From assembly GCF_036365525.1 (NCBI RefSeq), contig NC_090373.1, forward strand, positions 56,201,339-56,265,338: a stretch of 64,000 nucleotides of DNA, given 5' to 3'. The translations under genes and the position numbers were made by a program. The DNA comes from Heterodontus francisci (taxonomy: Eukaryota). Positions 4,375-38,559 of the stretch are shown here, in pieces; the stretch's first letter is position 1, and each line of letters starts with the position of its first letter. The notes below the pieces were generated by a model that saw only the letters and a list, made by a program, of their open reading frames with translations, made no database searches and had not been told where the DNA came from.

Positions 4375-5450
4375 CTCCTGCTCCCGCACCATTACCACTG
4401 ATGCCACCCAGGTATCTATCCTTGGCTCTCTCTTATTACTCGTTTACATGCTGTTCCTCAGCAACATTATACAAAAACACAGCTTCAGTTTCCACATGTA
4501 CTGTGATGACACTGAGGTCTATCAAGCCACGATTTCTCTAAACTCCTCCGCTGTCTCTATTTTGTCAGACTGCTTGTCCAGCATCCAATTCTGGATGAAC
4601 AGAAATTTTTTCCAATTAAATACTGGGAAGACCAAAGCCAATGTCTTCAGTTCCTGCTACAAACTCCGTTCCCTAGCCACTGACTCCACCCTCTCTCTGG
4701 CAACTGTCTGAGGCGGAACCAGATTGTTCGCAACCTTGGTGTCATATTTGACTCCCGAGATGAGCTTCAAACCACATAGCCGTGCCTATTTCCACCTCCA
4801 TAACATCGCCTGACTCCACCCCTGCCTCACCTCATCTGCTGCTGAAGACTTCATCGATGTCTTTGTTACCTCTAGACTAGATTATTCCAACACAGTGCTG
4901 GCTGGCCTCCCACATTCCACCTTCCATACCCTTGATGTGATCCAAAATTCTGCTGCTCGTATCCTAGCTTGCACCATGACCTGTTCACCCATCACCCCTG
5001 TGCTCACTAACAAGATTGGCTCACGGTTAAGCAAAGCCTCGATTTTAAAATTCTCATCCTTGTTTTCAAATACTCCATGGCCTTGCCTCTCCCTACCTCT
5101 GTAATCTCTACCAGCCCCACAACCTTCCGAGATATCCGTGGTTCTCTAATTCTGGCCCCTTGATTATTCCCGAGAGTAACCGTTATACCATTGATGGCCA
5201 TGTCTTCAGCTACCAAGGCCCTATATTCTGGAATTCCCTCCCTGCACCTCTCCGGTTCGTTAACTCTCTTTCCACCTTTAAGTCACTCCTTAAAACCTAC
5301 TTCTTTGATCAAGCTTTTGGTCATCTGCCCTATTATCTCTGTATGTGACTCAATATCAAATTTTGCTTTATAACATTACTGTTAAGTATCTTGGGACAAT
5401 TATTACATTACAGGCATCATATATCTACAAGTTGTATTTGTTGCTGTTGA
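4375..5450 (+). mobile_element. Decayed L2-clade LINE 3' part
   Basis: FHMYCDDTEVY, LSDCLSSIQFWM, QLNTGKTK, IQNSAARIL, WNSLPAPLR...FKSLLKTYFFDQAF; TGT-rich tail. Confidence 0.85.
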
Positions 5451-5524
5451 AAGTTATAAATTCATCAGTTTTCATGATGGAGCTACATTGTTATACATTG
5501 GGAATTGCTGAAAATAGAGACATG

Positions 5525-5560
5525 TTGTCGAAGCTTTTCGTCTTGCGCTCATCAGGACAA
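5525..5560 (-). ncRNA. Minimal type I hammerhead ribozyme motif (left arm)
   Basis: Minus strand reads TTGTC CTGATGA GCGCAAGAC GAA AAGCTT C GACAA: intact core, stem I TTGTC/GACAA, weak stem II. Confidence 0.65.
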
Positions 5561-5877
5561 TACGCAAGAATAACCAATGTAAGGGAAAGCAACAACTTAT
5601 ACTGCATGATAAAAGAATGCTGACTGGTTGGCAGTTAACTCTGATTGATAGAGGCACTGCCATGGAGAATGCACCAGTGTACGGTGACTGACAGATAAAC
5701 CAGTCAGCTTGACTCTGATTGGTCAAGGCATTGCCCTGAGGAATGAACCAGCGAATGGCTGTCAATTATTTTGTTCAGCTGAAACAGGCGCAATGTGTGT
5801 ACATGTTCTTTCTGTCTGCACTCTCTTCTCATGGAGTATAAGTTGTCGTTTTCCCTTACATTGGTTATTCTTGCGTA

Positions 5878-5913
5878 TTGTCCTGATGAGTGCAAGACGA
5901 AAAGCTTCGACAA
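5878..5913 (+). ncRNA. Minimal type I hammerhead ribozyme motif (right arm)
   Basis: TTGTC CTGATGA GT-GCAAG-AC GAA AAGCTT C GACAA: CUGAUGA/GAAA core, 5-bp stem I, 2-bp stem II, palindromic stem III AAGCTT, predicted cleavage after C5908. Confidence 0.75.
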
Positions 5914-6068
5914 AATGTCTCTATTTTCAGCAATTCTCAAGTTCTGTACTACCAAACGACTATTTGTTATACATTATTCTTCACTGGACACCATTGAAAG
6001 TTACACACCAATGGACCATCACTGCATATCTATGAAAGTTACATGTCACAAGTCCATTTATGCACACC

Positions 6069-6855
6069 GGGCAGAATTTAGTGAAGCTGGTGGAGCTCCC
6101 AGCATCAGGCCAAAAAGGCAGTGGGAGTCCCACCTCAGCCATTCGGAGACCCCCCCCCACCACCCCACCACCGGCTCTATTTAATGGCACAAGGGCAATT
6201 AACAGCCCAGCACCGAGATCTCTGTCCCTTTAAAGATGGGGATCCTGCCTCCAAGAGCTGCCGGCCAATCAAAGGGCTGGCAGCTAAGTAGTATCAGCAG
6301 CGCCATTGTAAGCGGTGGGCACTGCCTGTACTGCAGGAGGCCTGGGAACTAGACCCTGTGCTGGAGACCCGGACCTCAGGTCAAGTGAGGTGGGGTCACC
6401 AGAACTAGTCCGGTAAGCCCCAGCAATGGAGGGAGGGACAGTGGGCGTTGAGTGCAAGGGGAGGGGTGTTCAGGCAGGTGGGTTGTATTCCATCATGGGT
6501 CCTTCATGGGCCACACATTGTCCACAGAGGAGGGCCCCCCCTAAACCCCCACCCTGCAGGGATGCCACCTCATTTTACTGCACAACCTCCCGACATGGCA
6601 GAAGCCTGCCCCTCCCGCCGCTGACTAAATTTCAGCGGCAGTAGGAAGAGGCCCTTAAATGGCTGATAATAGGCCTCTTAAGGGCCTCAATTGGCCTCTG
6701 GGCGGGTAGACTATCATCGGCCTATCCCGCCCCGACTAAATTGTGGTATGAAGGAAGACGACGGGCCCTCTACCTCCCCCCCCAACCTCCCGCTGCAATT
6801 CTGTGGGCCCGCCCACTTCCGAGTGCATCTCCAGGGTCTCATGAAATCCAGCCCC
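6069..6855. mobile_element. Non-autonomous DNA transposon (MITE, PIF/Harbinger-like TIRs)
   Basis: Ends GGGCAGAATTT ... AAATCCAGCCC; internal blocks match 16584-17141 in inverted orientation. Confidence 0.7.
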
Positions 6856-6926
6856 AAGGAAAGCTACAGACCAACAGACCATTCGCTAATGACTACTCAC
6901 TGGATACTTCTAAAGGTTATACCTAC

Positions 6927-7128
6927 CGATCCACGATTACTGGAGACTTTTCAGATTCACTCGCTATGATGGAGGCAGTAATGTAATTGCCCAAAGCATA
7001 AAAAGCCCGTCGAATGAGAGGTGGCTTTACATCAAACGTTTTTCTCAAGTGGCCAATGCAGTCTGGTGGAGACTTCAGAAGTGTTGCTTGAATAGAGTCT
7101 CTTAAAGCCTCAGTCAATGTACTTTTTC
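6927..7128 (-). CDS. CMPK2: CMPK2 (UMP-CMP kinase 2) exon 3, 202 nt
   Basis: ctatag|GA AAA AGT...GAT CG|gtaggt; (G)KSTLTEALRDSIQATLLKSPPDCIGHLRKTFDVKPPLIRRAFYALGNYITASIIASESEKSPVIVDR completes the P-loop EGLDATGKS and the DR motif. Confidence 0.95.
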
Positions 7129-7379
7129 CTATAGATCAATAACGGGGTTAAAGGTTATGCCCATAACACACATACAGCAGTTCTATTTAATTGCCTGTTA
7201 TTCACTTAAAAGGCACATACTACATATAACCAGAGACTTTCACAGCATTAAGCAAGGAAAATATATGGGTTTTAAAATTCTACGTGGTCAACGACCTAAC
7301 AGCCAAGTAGATAGATGGATTATCTTGCTGAACCATATAAGACAGAAGGTCCCAGGTAAGATTGTCACTCTGTGTTGAT

Positions 7380-13022: not shown

Positions 13023-13253
13023 TGAAAAGTCGTGAGAAGAGACAGAAGTGTAGGAGTGGAGAGACAGAAGTGAAGATAGTGGAAATGGGTCAAGAATTTA
13101 AAGAAAGACAATATAGGTTGTGATTTGACGATGATGTTCCTGGGTTTAAAAGCAAATTCACCAATGTACTAGTGATGACGTAAAGGTGGGCTCTTCAAAA
13201 CATTGAACGCACCTGCTTTAAAGAATCATAAAAACACGTATACTACTGACCTA

Positions 13254-13413
13254 AATAAAAACAAGAAATGCTGGAACCACTCAGCCGGTCTGGCAGCATC
13301 TGTGGAAAGAGAAGCAGAGTTACTCTGCATCTCTTTCCACAGATGCTGCCAGACCTGCTGAGTGGTTCCAGCATTTCTTGTTTTTATTTCAAGCATCCGC
13401 GGTATTTTGCTTT
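13254..13413. mobile_element. Penelope-derived hairpin insertion, 15-bp TSD
   Basis: 68-bp inverted arms at 13253-13320 and 13322-13389 (2 mismatches); TATACTACTGACCTA at 13239-13253 and 13414-13428. Confidence 0.88.
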
Positions 13414-13429
13414 TATACTACTGACCTAC

Positions 13430-14047
13430 CTCTTCTAAAACACCATAAGCATCTTCATACTTGCAGAATACAACTGAGTTTTTGATGTTTAACACAGACG
13501 GATGAAGCTCTGGTCTTCCAGCCACAGAGACACAGTTTCTGAAGATCTCTCTCTCCTGCCCACCAGTGACCAGCCTGAGTCTCTGCCATATTCTGCCCCC
13601 ATCATCCCTCGTGTAGCTGCAGAGACTTGTCTGCCCACTTTTACGGACCAGATCCTGCAAGAGACGCTCTGTGTCCTTATAATTTTGATCGTCTTGAACC
13701 AAAAACCCCTTGATCAAAGATCCCTCCTTGTTTGGGGAAAATGCCAGCAGTTCCATAACGCGGCACCTTTCAGGCAGCCTTGTCAGTTTGTCTTGCAGAT
13801 GGACATAAGATTCTGCACCTTGAATCCTGTTTTCAGACGCGATGCAAACCGAATACGTTTGACCGCGGGTGAGGAGTTGGTGCAAACGGGAATTCTCATC
13901 CCAGGGCCCCTCAGAAGTTGGGTTTAGAGCAAAATAAAGTGGCTCTGAGTTACTGGGGCACTCGATTGCAAAGACCCTTTTAGCCCATTCCTTATACAGA
14001 GCCGATCCGAGTGACTGGGCCATCTCCAGGCTACAGCGGACATTCAT
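13430..14047 (-). CDS. CMPK2: CMPK2 exon 1 coding part, 618 nt
   Basis: ATG at 14047 with in-frame TGA upstream at 14095-14093; FAIECP..LYFAL, TYSVCI, GFLVQD, GRIWQRL, LHPSVLNIKNSVVF...VLEE|gtaggt resembles the vertebrate CMPK2 N-terminal domain. Confidence 0.9.
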
Positions 14048-14109
14048 TCTCGCCACAGTAACTGGCGATCGGTGGCACTGACACGGCCTGAGTCAGTTCC
14101 CCACCCAAG

Positions 14110-21545: not shown

Positions 21546-21580
21546 ATTCTGATGAAAAGTCATCGACCTGAAATGTTAAT
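21546..21580 (+). ncRNA. Minimal hammerhead ribozyme motif (core intact, stems imperfect)
   Basis: CUGAUGA-A, stem II AAGTC/GACCT, GAAA, decayed palindrome A(C>T)GT, stem I ATT/AAT. Confidence 0.55.
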
Positions 21581-25572: not shown

Positions 25573-26265
25573 TATGTAAGGATAAAGTACGTTCCTTACG
25601 ACACATTTGATAACTATACTGTTTGATGTGGAATTAAGCCACATAGACCAAGAAGCTGGTCTCAACACTCTGATGTCTAGTTTCATGGGGGAGCTAACAG
25701 GATAGCTGGCACCTGTAGAACCAAAACCGAACAAGATGCCAGTCCCTTCAATACTAGCCCTCCAGAGAAAACTGGTTGGGGCGGAATATTTGTTAAGTGT
25801 ATGTTAACAATTCTAAGGGCAGAATATCTTTCCTGCATCCATTTATTCAACATGTTGAACTCATGAAAACTGGAGCTGACTATAAGAATGAACTCCTGAG
25901 TTACATAATACTACATATACTCATCATCCCATTAAAAAAAGTTCATTAATATCACACCAAGTGCTCTAATGTATTGTACCGTGGACATTGGACAATCTAT
26001 CTCAATAATTCCCCACAAAGGGGCTCCCAGTTTTACTGGGGTAAGTGGAGAGGTGTCAAACATAGATGAGGCACCTTGTCTGAGAGAAGTGACTTCTGCA
26101 ACCAGCTTGGTTACAGAGCAGAATTTGTAGGGGTGAGGACTGCCTTTTTGTAACATGATATTAGGTAGTTTTCTAAGCTTTAATGCGGAAAGCAGAATTG
26201 ACAACTGTTATCCAGTTTTAAAAATTGTATTGCTCAAAGCTTAATATCAAACATTCATGTTACAG

Positions 26266-26495
26266 GTAAGGATTTGGACATTCTGGCTGTTTCATGTGAC
26301 AGTTTTGAAGAAGACACCAATCGTCTGATAGGCCGTGGGCAAGGGAACAAAAATCACATTGAGAACCTCCTCAAGGTCAGACTGTGGTGCAAAGATTACA
26401 AAGTGGCTTTTAAAATCAACTCTGTCATCAACAGATACAATGTTGAGGAGGATATGAATGAACAAATCAGGATATTGAATCCAGTAAGATGGAAG
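26266..26495 (+). CDS. RSAD2: RSAD2 exon 3, 230 nt
   Basis: ttacag|GT AAG GAT...TGG AAG|gtaatt; [27 protein letters not shown]...[11 protein letters not shown]...LNPVRWK. Confidence 0.97.
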
Positions 26496-26653
26496 GTAAT
26501 TTAATTAATTCACATATCTTGATATTGTAAGTTACAAGCCATGAAATATAAGAACATGGGGCATTGGGGATAGAATTCCATTGTAACTGTGGTGGGGAGA
26601 ATTGCTATTTTGGGTAGCACCAAAATCCTGAGCCAGTGAGGGAAGGCTGTGCT

Positions 26654-26755
26654 ATAAAAACAGAAAGTGCTGGAAATACTCAGCAGGTTGGGCAGTATCT
26701 GTGGAGAGAGAAACAGAGTTAAAGTTTCAGGTCGATGACCTTTCATCCGAACTCT
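26654..26755 (-). mobile_element. Short Penelope-derived repeat with hammerhead motif (core mutated to CGGATGA)
   Basis: Minus strand: AGAGTT CGGATGA AAGGTCATCGACCT GAAACTTT AACTCT. Confidence 0.75.
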
Positions 26756-36259: not shown

Positions 36260-36690
36260 GTCATAGAGTCATAGAATTATAGAGCACAGAAACAGGCCCT
36301 TTGGCCAAATGTGTCTGCGCAGACCATCAAGCACCCATCCAATCTAATCCCATTTTCCTGCACTAGACCCATAACCTTGTATGATATGGCATTTCAAGTG
36401 CTCATCTAAATACTTCTTAAATGTTGTGAGGGTTCCTGCCTCCAACAGGCAGTGTGTTCCAGATTTCAACCACCTTCTGGGTGAAAAAGTTTTTCCCCAA
36501 CTCCCCTCTAAACCTCCTGCTCCTTACCTTAAATTTATGCTCCCCGGTTATTGACCCCTCCACTAAGGGAAAAAATTTCTTCCTATCTTTCCTATCAATG
36601 CCCCTCATAATTTTGTATACCTCAATCAGGTCCCCACTCAGCCTTCGCTGCTCCAAGGAAAACAACCCCAGCCCATCCAGTCTCTCTTAC
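36260..36690 (-). mobile_element. CR1 3' end
   Basis: FSLEQRRLSGDLIEVYKIMRG...FFTQKVVEIWNTLP; CATAGAGT tail. Confidence 0.88.
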
Positions 36691-36707: not shown

Positions 36708-37978
36708 AGGGATTAATCAGGGTTAGTATGGCTTTGTCAGGGGGAGATCGTGTCTAACAAACTTGTTTGAATTTTTTGAGGAGGTAAATGATGGTAAAGC
36801 AGGTGATGTAGTCTACTTGAACTTCAATAAGGCTTTTGATAAGGTCCTGCATGGGAGATTGGTTCAGAAGGTAAGAGCCCATGGGATCCAAGGCAATTTG
36901 GCAAATTGGATCCAAAATTGGCTGTGGCAGGAGGCAGAGAGTGATGGTCGAAGGTTGTTTTTGCGAGTGGAAGCCAGTGACCAGTGGTGTACCGCAGGGA
37001 TCTGTGCTGGGACCCTTGCTGTTTGCAGTGTACATTAATGATTTAGACGTGAATATAGGAGGTATGATCAGTAAGTTCGCAGATGACACGAAAATTGTTG
37101 GTGTTGTAAATAGTGAGGAGGAAAGCCTTAGATTACAGGACGATATAGATGAGCTGAGCAGTGGAAAATGGAATTTAATCCTGAGAAGTGTAAGGTGATG
37201 CATTTTGGGAGGACTAACAAGGCAAGGGAATATACAATGGATGGTAGGACCCTAGGAAGTACAGAGGGTCAGAGGGACCTTGGTGTACTTGTCCATAGAT
37301 CACTGAAGGTAGCAGCACAGGTAGATAAGGTGGTTAGGAAGGCATATGGGATACTTGCCTTTATTAGCCAAGGCGTAGAATATAAGAGCAGGAAGGTTAT
37401 GAAGGAGCTGTATAAAACGCTAGTTAGGCCATAGCTGGAGTACTATGTACAGTTCTGGTCACCGCACTATAGGAAGGTTGTGATTGCACTGGGTAGGGTG
37501 CAGAGGAGATTCACCAGGATGTTGCATGGGATGGATCATTTCAACTATGAAGAGAGACTGGATAGGCTAGGATTGTTTCCCTTAGAGCAGATAAGGCTGA
37601 GGTAGGACCTGATTGAGGTATACAAAATTATGAGGGGCATTGATAGGATAGATAAGAAACTTTTTCCCTTAGTGGTGGGATCAATAACCAGGGGGCATAG
37701 ATTTAAGATAAGGGGCAGGAGATTTAGAGGGGATTTAAAGAATTTTTTTTTCACCCAGAGTGTGGTTGGAATCTGGAACACACTACCTGAAGGGGTGGTA
37801 GAGGCAGGAACCCTCACAACATTTAAGAAGTATTTAGATGAGCACTTGAAACACCATAGCATACAAGGCTACCAGCCAAGTGCTGGAAAATGGGATTAGA
37901 ATAGATGGATGCTTGATGGCCGGCACAGACACGATAGGCCGAAGGGCCTGTTTCGGTGCTGTATAACTCTATGACTCT
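36708..37978 (+). mobile_element. CR1 RT and 3' end
   Basis: FNKAFDKV, SGVPQGSVLGPLLFAVYINDL, KFADDTK, MEFNPEKCKVMHFG; CTCTATGA tail. Confidence 0.92.
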
Positions 37979-38559
37979 AATTCTGTTGAGGGTAAATTTC
38001 TTTTCAGGTAATAATACACTTGACCTTTCATTTAATTAATATTAAGCAGAGCTTCTCCACTGTATTTTCATGAGGTGAGCCACAGAACTTCCAGAAAAAT
38101 TGCATCAATTAAGTTATGGGAGACAAGCAGGTGAACCCCTGCAAAAATCCATCCTCCAGCTGAGTGATTCCAGCATTTTCTGCTGTTGTTTCCAATTTCT
38201 AGCATCTGCAGATTTTGTTTTACATTTTGTTCACTCTGCTAAACACTGGAATCCTCATCATTCCTCGAAGAAGATAGCCTGGAATTTTCTCTATGGGTGC
38301 ACATTTGGCATAACATTATTTAGAATCTGCGCTCGTGGAAGTTGAGAAACTTCTAATGTGAATTATACTTATGTGATTAAAATGTATTCAAAGAAACAAA
38401 AGGTACAGTGCAAGTCCCAGTGAGCACTTTTTAAAAATATGTTCAACAAATTTCAATAAAACACCAGAAAAAAAAACTTGGTTTCCTGCTGCACCCGAAA
38501 ATCTGGTCATGCTTTGAAGAGACCCTCTGAGCAAGAGAACAAGTGTTATTTAGGAGTGG

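Follow-up and report, generated by a model that had tools for sequence, protein, structure and literature searches.

Head-to-head fragments of a Penelope-like element in a CMPK2 intron of Heterodontus francisci, with a likely pseudoknot in their hammerhead motifs

The insert and its host gene

The stretch of Heterodontus francisci DNA analysed here, hereafter the window, spans 64,000 nucleotides of contig NC_090373.1. Its minus strand carries CMPK2-like exons that end near 13430, 10196, and 6925, located by peptide motifs that we take to be those of CMPK2, and two further exons lie ~2.4-2.6 and 4.7 kb before window position 1. The exon ~2.4 kb before the window matches the Pfam family Thymidylate_kin (E 1.2e-5, just below the curated cut-off), and the Pfam search gave no match for three host exons. 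RSAD2/viperin (PDB match E 2.7e-37) stands head-to-head with the gene, with CMPK2 at ~13418-14092 (-) and RSAD2 at ~23100 and 26200-26500 (+), ~9 kb apart. The same head-to-head arrangement of CMPK2 and RSAD2 occurs in other vertebrates. The gene name thus rests on the Thymidylate_kin domain, the RSAD2 neighbour, and the peptide motifs.

Exon 3 is found in one piece within longer contigs of 4/4 sequencing runs, whose RNA nature is a guess. Contigs of the same four runs, likewise guessed to be RNA, cover the repeat along with numerous further copies. Two unique bins of the intron are left without coverage; this pattern says nothing on the insert locus or on editing. Because exon 3 is followed by the exon ~2.4 kb before the window, the insert lies in intron 3, in agreement with the first-pass annotation, which had put it in a CMPK2 intron; since the minus strand encodes the gene, it is the left-hand one of the two ribozymes that has sense orientation in the pre-mRNA. 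Going by gene anatomy, exon 3 would be spliced to exon 4 across the insert.

The insert itself is 464 nt long (5500-5963) and is bounded on both sides by a 12-bp target site duplication (TSD); its ends are ambiguous, since TSD and element overlap by 2 nt on the left and by up to 4 nt on the right. Two inverted arms (5498-5624 and 5814-5940) of 127 nt are 92% complementary, with 10 mismatches and a longest perfect run of 41 nt, and a 23-nt tail (5941-5963) has no partner in the other arm. For the whole insert, the computed folding energy is -253 kcal/mol (z -20). The layout described from the letters alone therefore stands. The 189-nt spacer is also present, but proves to be the continuation of the left arm (ORF end and 3' UTR), and the nested repeat seen within it is a genuine perfect 11-bp pairing that is specific to this copy: both halves occur in 0/28 other copies, and the family majority is complementary at 9/11 positions. 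Promoter-like motifs lie in the pLTR (Table 1), where two to three CCAAT boxes survive within the final 330 nt of 23/28 family copies. The repeated boxes are borne by a degenerate 74-nt tandem duplication of the pLTR (5635-5684 and 5709-5758) that many family copies share. A sigma-70 promoter scan, a model that does not apply to this organism, stayed at chance level.

Table 1. Features of the insert and its surroundings (window coordinates).
Feature	Positions	Strand	Remarks
Left TSD, 12 bp, TTGTTATACATT	5488-5499		Identical to 5964-5975
Right TSD, 12 bp, TTGTTATACATT	5964-5975		Identical to 5488-5499
Long arm: ~340 last nt of PLE unit minus tail (reference -362..-23)	5498-5820	-	82-90% match to 3' end of family copies
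Short arm: final 149 nt of PLE unit, tail included (reference -148..0)	5815-5963	+	Family match
38 terminal codons of PLE ORF (GIY-YIG domain end, CRQKEHVHTLRLFQ...) and stop	5704-5820	-	Homologues finish in LCRQKEFVFSL
ORF codons 1 to ~7 (MSLFSAI), stopping at tail-less 3' end class	5498-5523	-	Family copies
ORF codons 1-16 (MSLFSAILKFCTTKRL)	5915-5963	+	In full-length copies the tail continues into the ORF
Inversion junction	5815-5820		GCA exact in both arms; 5/6 nt with one mismatch
Putative pLTR promoter-like motifs	5597-5722	-	CCAAT box intact 5718-5722; decayed 5644-5648, 5623-5627; TATAA 5597-5601
Nested 11-bp perfect inverted repeat	5619-5629 / 5698-5708		This copy only
Predicted hammerhead 1, sense in CMPK2 pre-mRNA	5525-5569	-	Pseudoknot strand 5569-5563; stem I 5560-5556/5529-5525; core 5555-5549; G10.1 5548; loop II 5547-5541; C11.1 5540; GAA; AAGCUU; C17 5530
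Predicted hammerhead 2	5869-5913	+	Pseudoknot strand 5869-5875; stem I 5878-5882/5909-5913; core CTGATGA 5883-5889; G10.1 5890; loop II 5891-5897; C11.1 5898; GAA; AAGCUU 5902-5907; C17 5908
CMPK2 exon 3	6925-7130	-	Insert in next intron; exon 4 outside window

Other repeats share the window. A second hammerhead family is represented by four decayed copies, at 21549 (+) and at 26749, 25107, and 17822 (-), with a regular stem II (CTGATGA-AAGGTC...GACCT-GAAA), and the insert belongs to a distinct family, as had been proposed. Intron 1 of CMPK2 holds, at 13239-13428, a 137-nt palindrome (13253-13389, 96%) that has a tail of ~25 nt on one side and a TSD of 14-15 bp. This palindrome, which is tighter than the insert, derives from the second family; its arms start at most 1 nt from that family's predicted cut site, itself palindromic. 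It sits ~15 nt inside the intron, and its TSD duplicates part of the splice-donor region. A different repeat forms a 433-nt inverted pair (36264-36688 and 37550-37979; 84%) with its members 862 nt apart.

A Penelope-like element and its head-to-head insertions

A genome search with the insert gave 5,027 first-look candidates. At 38 of the 40 scored places, only query 1-321 or a part of it is matched, and upstream of that segment the similarity among the copies retrieved extends for as much as another 1 kb, in sequence that reads as a GIY-YIG domain (NVIYEFQCQCDARYIGR) preceded by reverse transcriptase (RT) motifs. The suggested origin from a Penelope-like element (PLE) is borne out by these copies, which continue into a GIY-YIG/RT ORF. 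The same observation speaks against the suggestion that the family is non-autonomous. An RT probe drew 22,692 genome candidates, and the insert's 3' end lies in cis at 28/29 other RT-selected loci fetched; a probe for the 5' end drew 147 candidates only, which reflects 5' truncation of the family. The hammerhead core pattern has 1,583 exact occurrences in the 6.0-Gb genome against 0 for a reversed control; corrected by the 23/90 unselected arms that match this pattern, the genome would hold about 6,200 arms, in round terms some 6,000 end copies.

Near-full-length copies (L098 and L102) are organized as tail-ORF-pLTR-tail over ~2.8 kb, and the full ORF is intact in none of 10 long loci, where all frames are broken. 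The pLTR overlaps the start of the ORF: the hammerhead or the tail continues into it in L066/L094, L095, L096, L097, and L098, and in full-length copies what follows the hammerhead is the ORF start MSLFSAILKFCTTKRL, of which the tail forms part. In the short arm of the insert, the ATG of this start lies 6 nt past the predicted cut, and the tail is the final part of the 16-codon ORF start. A similar N-terminus is found in the homologue P0013 and in relatives from metagenomes. RVT_1 is present in 11/14 protein homologues, and GIY-YIG is listed for 11-13% of the members of Atlas look-alikes. Family copies combine RT motifs and a VIY...YIG domain in cis, the arrangement of a single-ORF EN+ PLE; Pfam run on the family's own fragments gave a weak RT match (E 0.022) and no GIY-YIG match on the EN fragments. 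The insert retains just the last 38 and the first 16 ORF codons. According to the available part of PMC8557442, a CX2-5CxxC zinc-finger motif in the linker separates Neptune/Nematis from Penelope/Poseidon; this motif is absent before GIY-YIG in all 15 rows of our protein alignment. Because the homologues do not have it, the sequence points to placement in the Penelope/Poseidon clade.

The head-to-head arrangement is common in the family. Of 29 insertions sampled by way of the core pattern, 13 show both 3' ends in this orientation; such sampling favours two-armed insertions. Five pairs with both cores exact (10 cores) are found among the first 100 listed of the 1,583 cores, and no same-strand neighbouring cores within 5 kb occur among these 100. 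Over all loci, 38 distinct paired insertions remain once L066, L071, and L080 are dropped as inner pairings of L094, L098, and L097, which are already in the count. All 38 differ in arm lengths. The tail is present on exactly one arm in 36; both arms are tail-less in two, and also in L106/L107, which stand outside the count as their ends touch the locus edges. No tail-to-tail orientation was seen among the 38. TSDs of ~12 bp are common (score at least 9 in 26/38), and stricter outside-only windows support them in 10/41 cases against 2/300 controls. Since the labels longer and shorter are unreliable for interrupted arms, the position of the tail was taken from 25 uninterrupted junctions: it is on the shorter arm in 13, on the longer arm in 11, and absent in one. 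The 3' ends are bimodal (n=145, including a few 5' pLTRs or overlapping loci), with 69 at 0..-7 and 59 at -19..-30, and none of the 145 falls at the ribozyme cut site, -55.

The one-tail pattern best fits priming from both target strands. In the portion of PMC11167929 available to us, a PLE protein cuts and extends both strands in vitro, uses unprocessed RNA, and starts reverse transcription at two internal RNA sites, one at either boundary of the tail; together with the one-tail rule, these findings suggest a staggered cut whose two strands prime separate cDNAs, each from a start site of its own. We infer the priming, cDNA-joining, and cleavage steps as follows. The element protein would cut both strands of an AT-rich target ~12 nt apart, and uncleaved element RNA would be reverse-transcribed from each 3'-OH, with one start at the tail end and the other 20-30 nt before it. 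Both cDNAs would end early, here at 323 and 149 nt, and would then be joined at a short microhomology, here GCA. Clear microhomology at only ~7 of the 25 direct junctions weakens this model, and many junctions have 0-22 unaligned bases. A literature search for twin priming in Penelope elements found no relevant report.

An alternative that we consider unlikely is self-priming, in which a cDNA or antisense RNA would fold back and copy itself and the endonuclease would later trim one tail. Proposals in PMC3846280 and PMC8557442 come close to it, as far as their available text goes, and it would suit both the head-to-head orientation, the sole one seen, and the slightly greater likeness of arms from the same insertion (0.899, n=25) than of arms from different insertions (0.886, n=6,189 pairs). 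A fold-back copy, however, cannot hold a tail that is missing from the long arm, which is the situation here and in 13/25 clean junctions, and the arms begin at very different positions with no central palindrome. Tail and arm-length statistics thus tell apart the two models of PLE inverted ends, and priming from both target strands is the reading that we prefer.

Two further observations concern these loci. Besides their duplicated inverted arms, L024, L117, and L029 contain non-duplicated inverted pieces 0-9 nt from the main body, which resemble LINE-1 twin-priming inversions. Directly past the tail, the first bases frequently agree with what comes next in the element itself (here 5964-5972, TTGT, 4 nt), which may reflect pairing of target and template at priming.

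The hammerhead motif and its setting in CMPK2

Each arm carries, pointing outward, the string TTGTC-CTGATGA-G(7 nt)C-GAA-AAGCTT-C-GACAA. The first-pass annotation had recognized these as two opposed hammerheads of the minimal type I with a palindromic helix III, and most of that reading is upheld: an intact core, a 5-bp stem I, and the palindrome AAGCTT are present on both strands, with predicted cuts after C17 at 5908 on the plus strand and after the complement of G5530 on the minus strand. The type I core (CUGANGA / GAAA / UH, with G10.1-C11.1 and A15.1-U16.1) is shared by both arms and the family majority. Helix III is incomplete in the monomer. Stem II fares differently. Its G10.1-C11.1 pair is real, but no helix follows: a single pair (G5890-C5898 on the plus strand) closes a 7-nt loop in all five families compared, in place of the regular multi-pair helix II of a minimal PLE hammerhead. 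The first-pass annotation had missed that this loop pairs with a strand upstream.

The comparison includes 79 related PLE loci on metagenome contigs, which add four more families. These four have the geometry and N-terminus of the window family and differ from it in stem I and loop II; the helix III palindrome, AAGCUU here, is AACGUU in L141 and AAAAGCUUU, with one extra A, in L134. In each of the five families, loop II is complementary at 7/7 positions to an upstream strand that ends 7-9 nt before the core, and the helix length of 6-7 bp is kept. Both sides of this helix change at four positions, each loop pairs best with its own strand, and shuffling gives p 0.001-0.013 per family. In a gap-free alignment of seven rows from three independent families, all 98 cells pair (100%), and covariation is 0.64, compared with 0.29 after shuffling and no more than 0.16 after sliding, the structure having been drawn from the same sequences. 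L134 and L138 were left out of this alignment because MAFFT put them out of register, and they were counted by script instead. Stem I changes on both sides at 5/5 pairs in the seven rows, and such changes are seen across the five families as well. The upstream helix is broken in some decayed copies (L174, L179, L200, and L210). Stem I and the core have no nucleotide in common with it, so it is best read as a pseudoknot, and the sequences indicate that this conserved pseudoknot likely takes the place of stem II in the folded hammerhead.

A rather improbable alternative is that this helix has been conserved as an off-switch, blocking the ribozyme instead of bracing it. A nested-only folding program, unable to model pseudoknots, draws the helix as a plain hairpin (P 0.74-1.0) without stem I, as the off-switch would predict, and the computed monomer ribozyme fold lies 2-11 kcal/mol above the minimum. 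The absence of any overlap with stem I or the core, the covariation of both helices, and the preservation of a 6-7 bp length and a 7-9 nt offset in five families argue instead for the bracing pseudoknot, as does the fast ribozyme with a 1-bp stem II and a 6-bp pseudoknot described in the accessible text of PMC3088659. With the pseudoknot as brace, a second copy in an intact tandem would supply the 6-bp helix III, and cleavage by the hammerhead would fall 6 nt upstream of the ORF's AUG.

The window contains no Rfam match at the gathering score, and no hammerhead is reported at E 10 in 5400-6100; the pseudoknot may explain why Rfam misses PLE hammerheads. Short-stem-III hammerheads are reportedly the subject of work by Lunse et al. 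Among the texts that a literature search covered, none assigned a pseudoknot to PLE hammerheads.

Some of the relatives vary the motif. In the metagenome family of L198 (L142-L210), most copies have TTGAAGA for CTGAAGA (C3 to U) and keep G8, stem I, and the pseudoknot; being common to many copies, the change may be a family trait and not decay. In the window family, as in that of L198, 3-6 nt separate the predicted cut from the start codon; in L138 (1288-1440) and L141 (122-250) a short duplication after the hammerhead widens this distance to 41-45 nt.

The family majority preserves the core and stem I, and copies decay chiefly at CpG (25% vs 3-6%), with core and stem I both kept in 21/90 unselected arms. 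The insert's arms diverge from the family majority by just 2.7% and 4.5% (median 6.5%), which makes intact cores unsurprising. Substitutions are fewer in the core (3.4%) than in the flanks (6.3%, p 0.016), which could hint at selection, although alignment noise and search bias are also possible sources of the difference.

In read-through RNA of either strand, the prediction has the one sense ribozyme paired along its whole length with the antisense arm, as had been anticipated: the probability of stem I is ~0, and forming the ribozyme costs a predicted ~66 kcal/mol. The CMPK2 pre-mRNA has its antisense arm transcribed first, and no second sense copy is near to complete helix III. Cutting of the pre-mRNA is not expected, since the sense ribozyme is predicted to be buried, and an effect of the insert on CMPK2 is unlikely in light of these models. 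The earlier idea of a regulated on/off switch is not supported: the hairpin is a by-product of insertion geometry that recurs in dozens of copies of a family decaying by CpG loss. A special role for the double-stranded RNA in CMPK2 fares no better in a window that has 29 inverted pairs of at least 100 nt; that the arm duplex, with its 41-bp longest perfect run, serves as an editing substrate is nonetheless plausible.

That the hairpin has been co-opted to regulate CMPK2, through dsRNA sensing, editing, or conditional cleavage, is very improbable. Both of its cores are intact, against the 21/90 unselected arms noted above, and of the window's long inverted pairs only the 137-nt palindrome is more closely spaced; yet intact cores are what arms so near the family majority should have, 10 of the first 100 listed cores sit in head-to-head pairs, and intronic RNA is ordinarily removed in the nucleus. 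We regard the insertion as an ordinary PLE footprint, probably without meaning for CMPK2. Least probable of all is a fixed, MITE-like non-autonomous family whose 464-nt unit is moved by a PLE partner: a perfect TSD does surround the whole unit, and the two-arm layout of L002 is similar at 85%, but L002 departs from the insert at several bases of the junction and in the end point of its long arm, arm lengths differ in all 38 paired insertions, the nested repeat is this copy's own, the spacer is PLE ORF/UTR sequence, and no set of many copies with the same ends and junction was found.

Overall, we are confident that the insert consists of two 3' fragments of an abundant RT + GIY-YIG PLE, set head-to-head, likely in one event and likely inert in the CMPK2 intron, whose hammerhead likely has a conserved pseudoknot replacing stem II.

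Comparison with known elements and ribozymes

Inverted PLE structures such as this one are described in the available parts of PMC3846280, PMC8557442, and PMC2377424. Closest in form are Pen2a_Av-type insertions of EN+ PLEs (PMC3846280, with the scheme of PMC8557442; both seen in part), which are likewise head-to-head and 5'-truncated, with a tail at one end and a TSD of ~10 bp; in these, too, pLTR and tail hold the first ORF codons, and the pLTR has a TATA-like motif. The insert differs in being two short stubs with no ORF between them, in its tail class of 20-30 nt instead of 30-40, and in its 12-bp TSD. Non-LTR retrozymes, as presented in the part of bioRxiv 10.64898/2026.07.22.740005 that was available, are similarly non-coding, hammerhead-bearing derivatives of PLE pLTRs. 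They are, however, head-to-tail tandems of units that each have a hammerhead, whereas the insert is head-to-head and has no fixed unit. The insert was rejected as a retrozyme, as its two copies are opposed and no same-strand cores lie within 5 kb of each other among the first 100 listed.

PAc, the Poseidon element of Anolis carolinensis (PMC11167929, available in part), resembles the family in its RT with C-terminal GIY-YIG, its hammerhead at the pLTR-ORF junction, and its two 3' end classes inside the ORF, neither of which falls at the ribozyme cut. PAc is cut 26 nt past the start codon, and its RT starts 111-118 nt into the ORF; the family here has its predicted cut 6 nt upstream of the AUG and its ends ~20-49 nt into the ORF. 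The portion available makes no mention of a pseudoknot.

With the minimal metazoan PLE hammerheads of PMC4209133, again as far as the accessible text extends, the motif shares type I topology, a helix I of 4-6 bp, the G10.1-C11.1 pair, and a palindromic helix III that suits dimers; opposite-strand hammerhead pairs 100-700 bp apart are reported there for Schistosoma. Those ribozymes have low activity, a long helix II (6-8 bp in the examples), and an extra base after A9, unlike the motif here, which has a 1-bp helix II, no extra base, and a loop II paired upstream. In this last respect it is like the pseudoknot-stabilized hammerheads (PMC3088659; PDB 8YDC, PMC11300833; partial texts), where a helix of ~6 bp replaces helix II. 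A natural case with a 1-bp stem II is among them, and such pseudoknots are known to be fast in microbial hammerheads. In 8YDC, the partner of the pseudoknot is the loop of an extra stem-loop, helix IV. These ribozymes differ from the motif here in having a complete helix III and working as monomers, and the word Penelope is absent from PMC11300833.

The covariation-supported variant, as a predicted ribozyme, thus joins two known designs, and its pseudoknot bears on whether and how PLE hammerheads cut. If the prediction is true, constructs ending at stem I lack the brace, and part of the poor in vitro activity of PLE hammerheads could be explained. More broadly, we lean towards the view that an animal Penelope/Poseidon branch may possess a hybrid hammerhead, with a 1-bp stem II, a 6-7 bp pseudoknot with a strand lying 7-9 nt upstream of the core, and a helix III supplied by a second copy, that would cut before the start codon, and that the one-tail rule would reflect twin priming from two RNA start sites.
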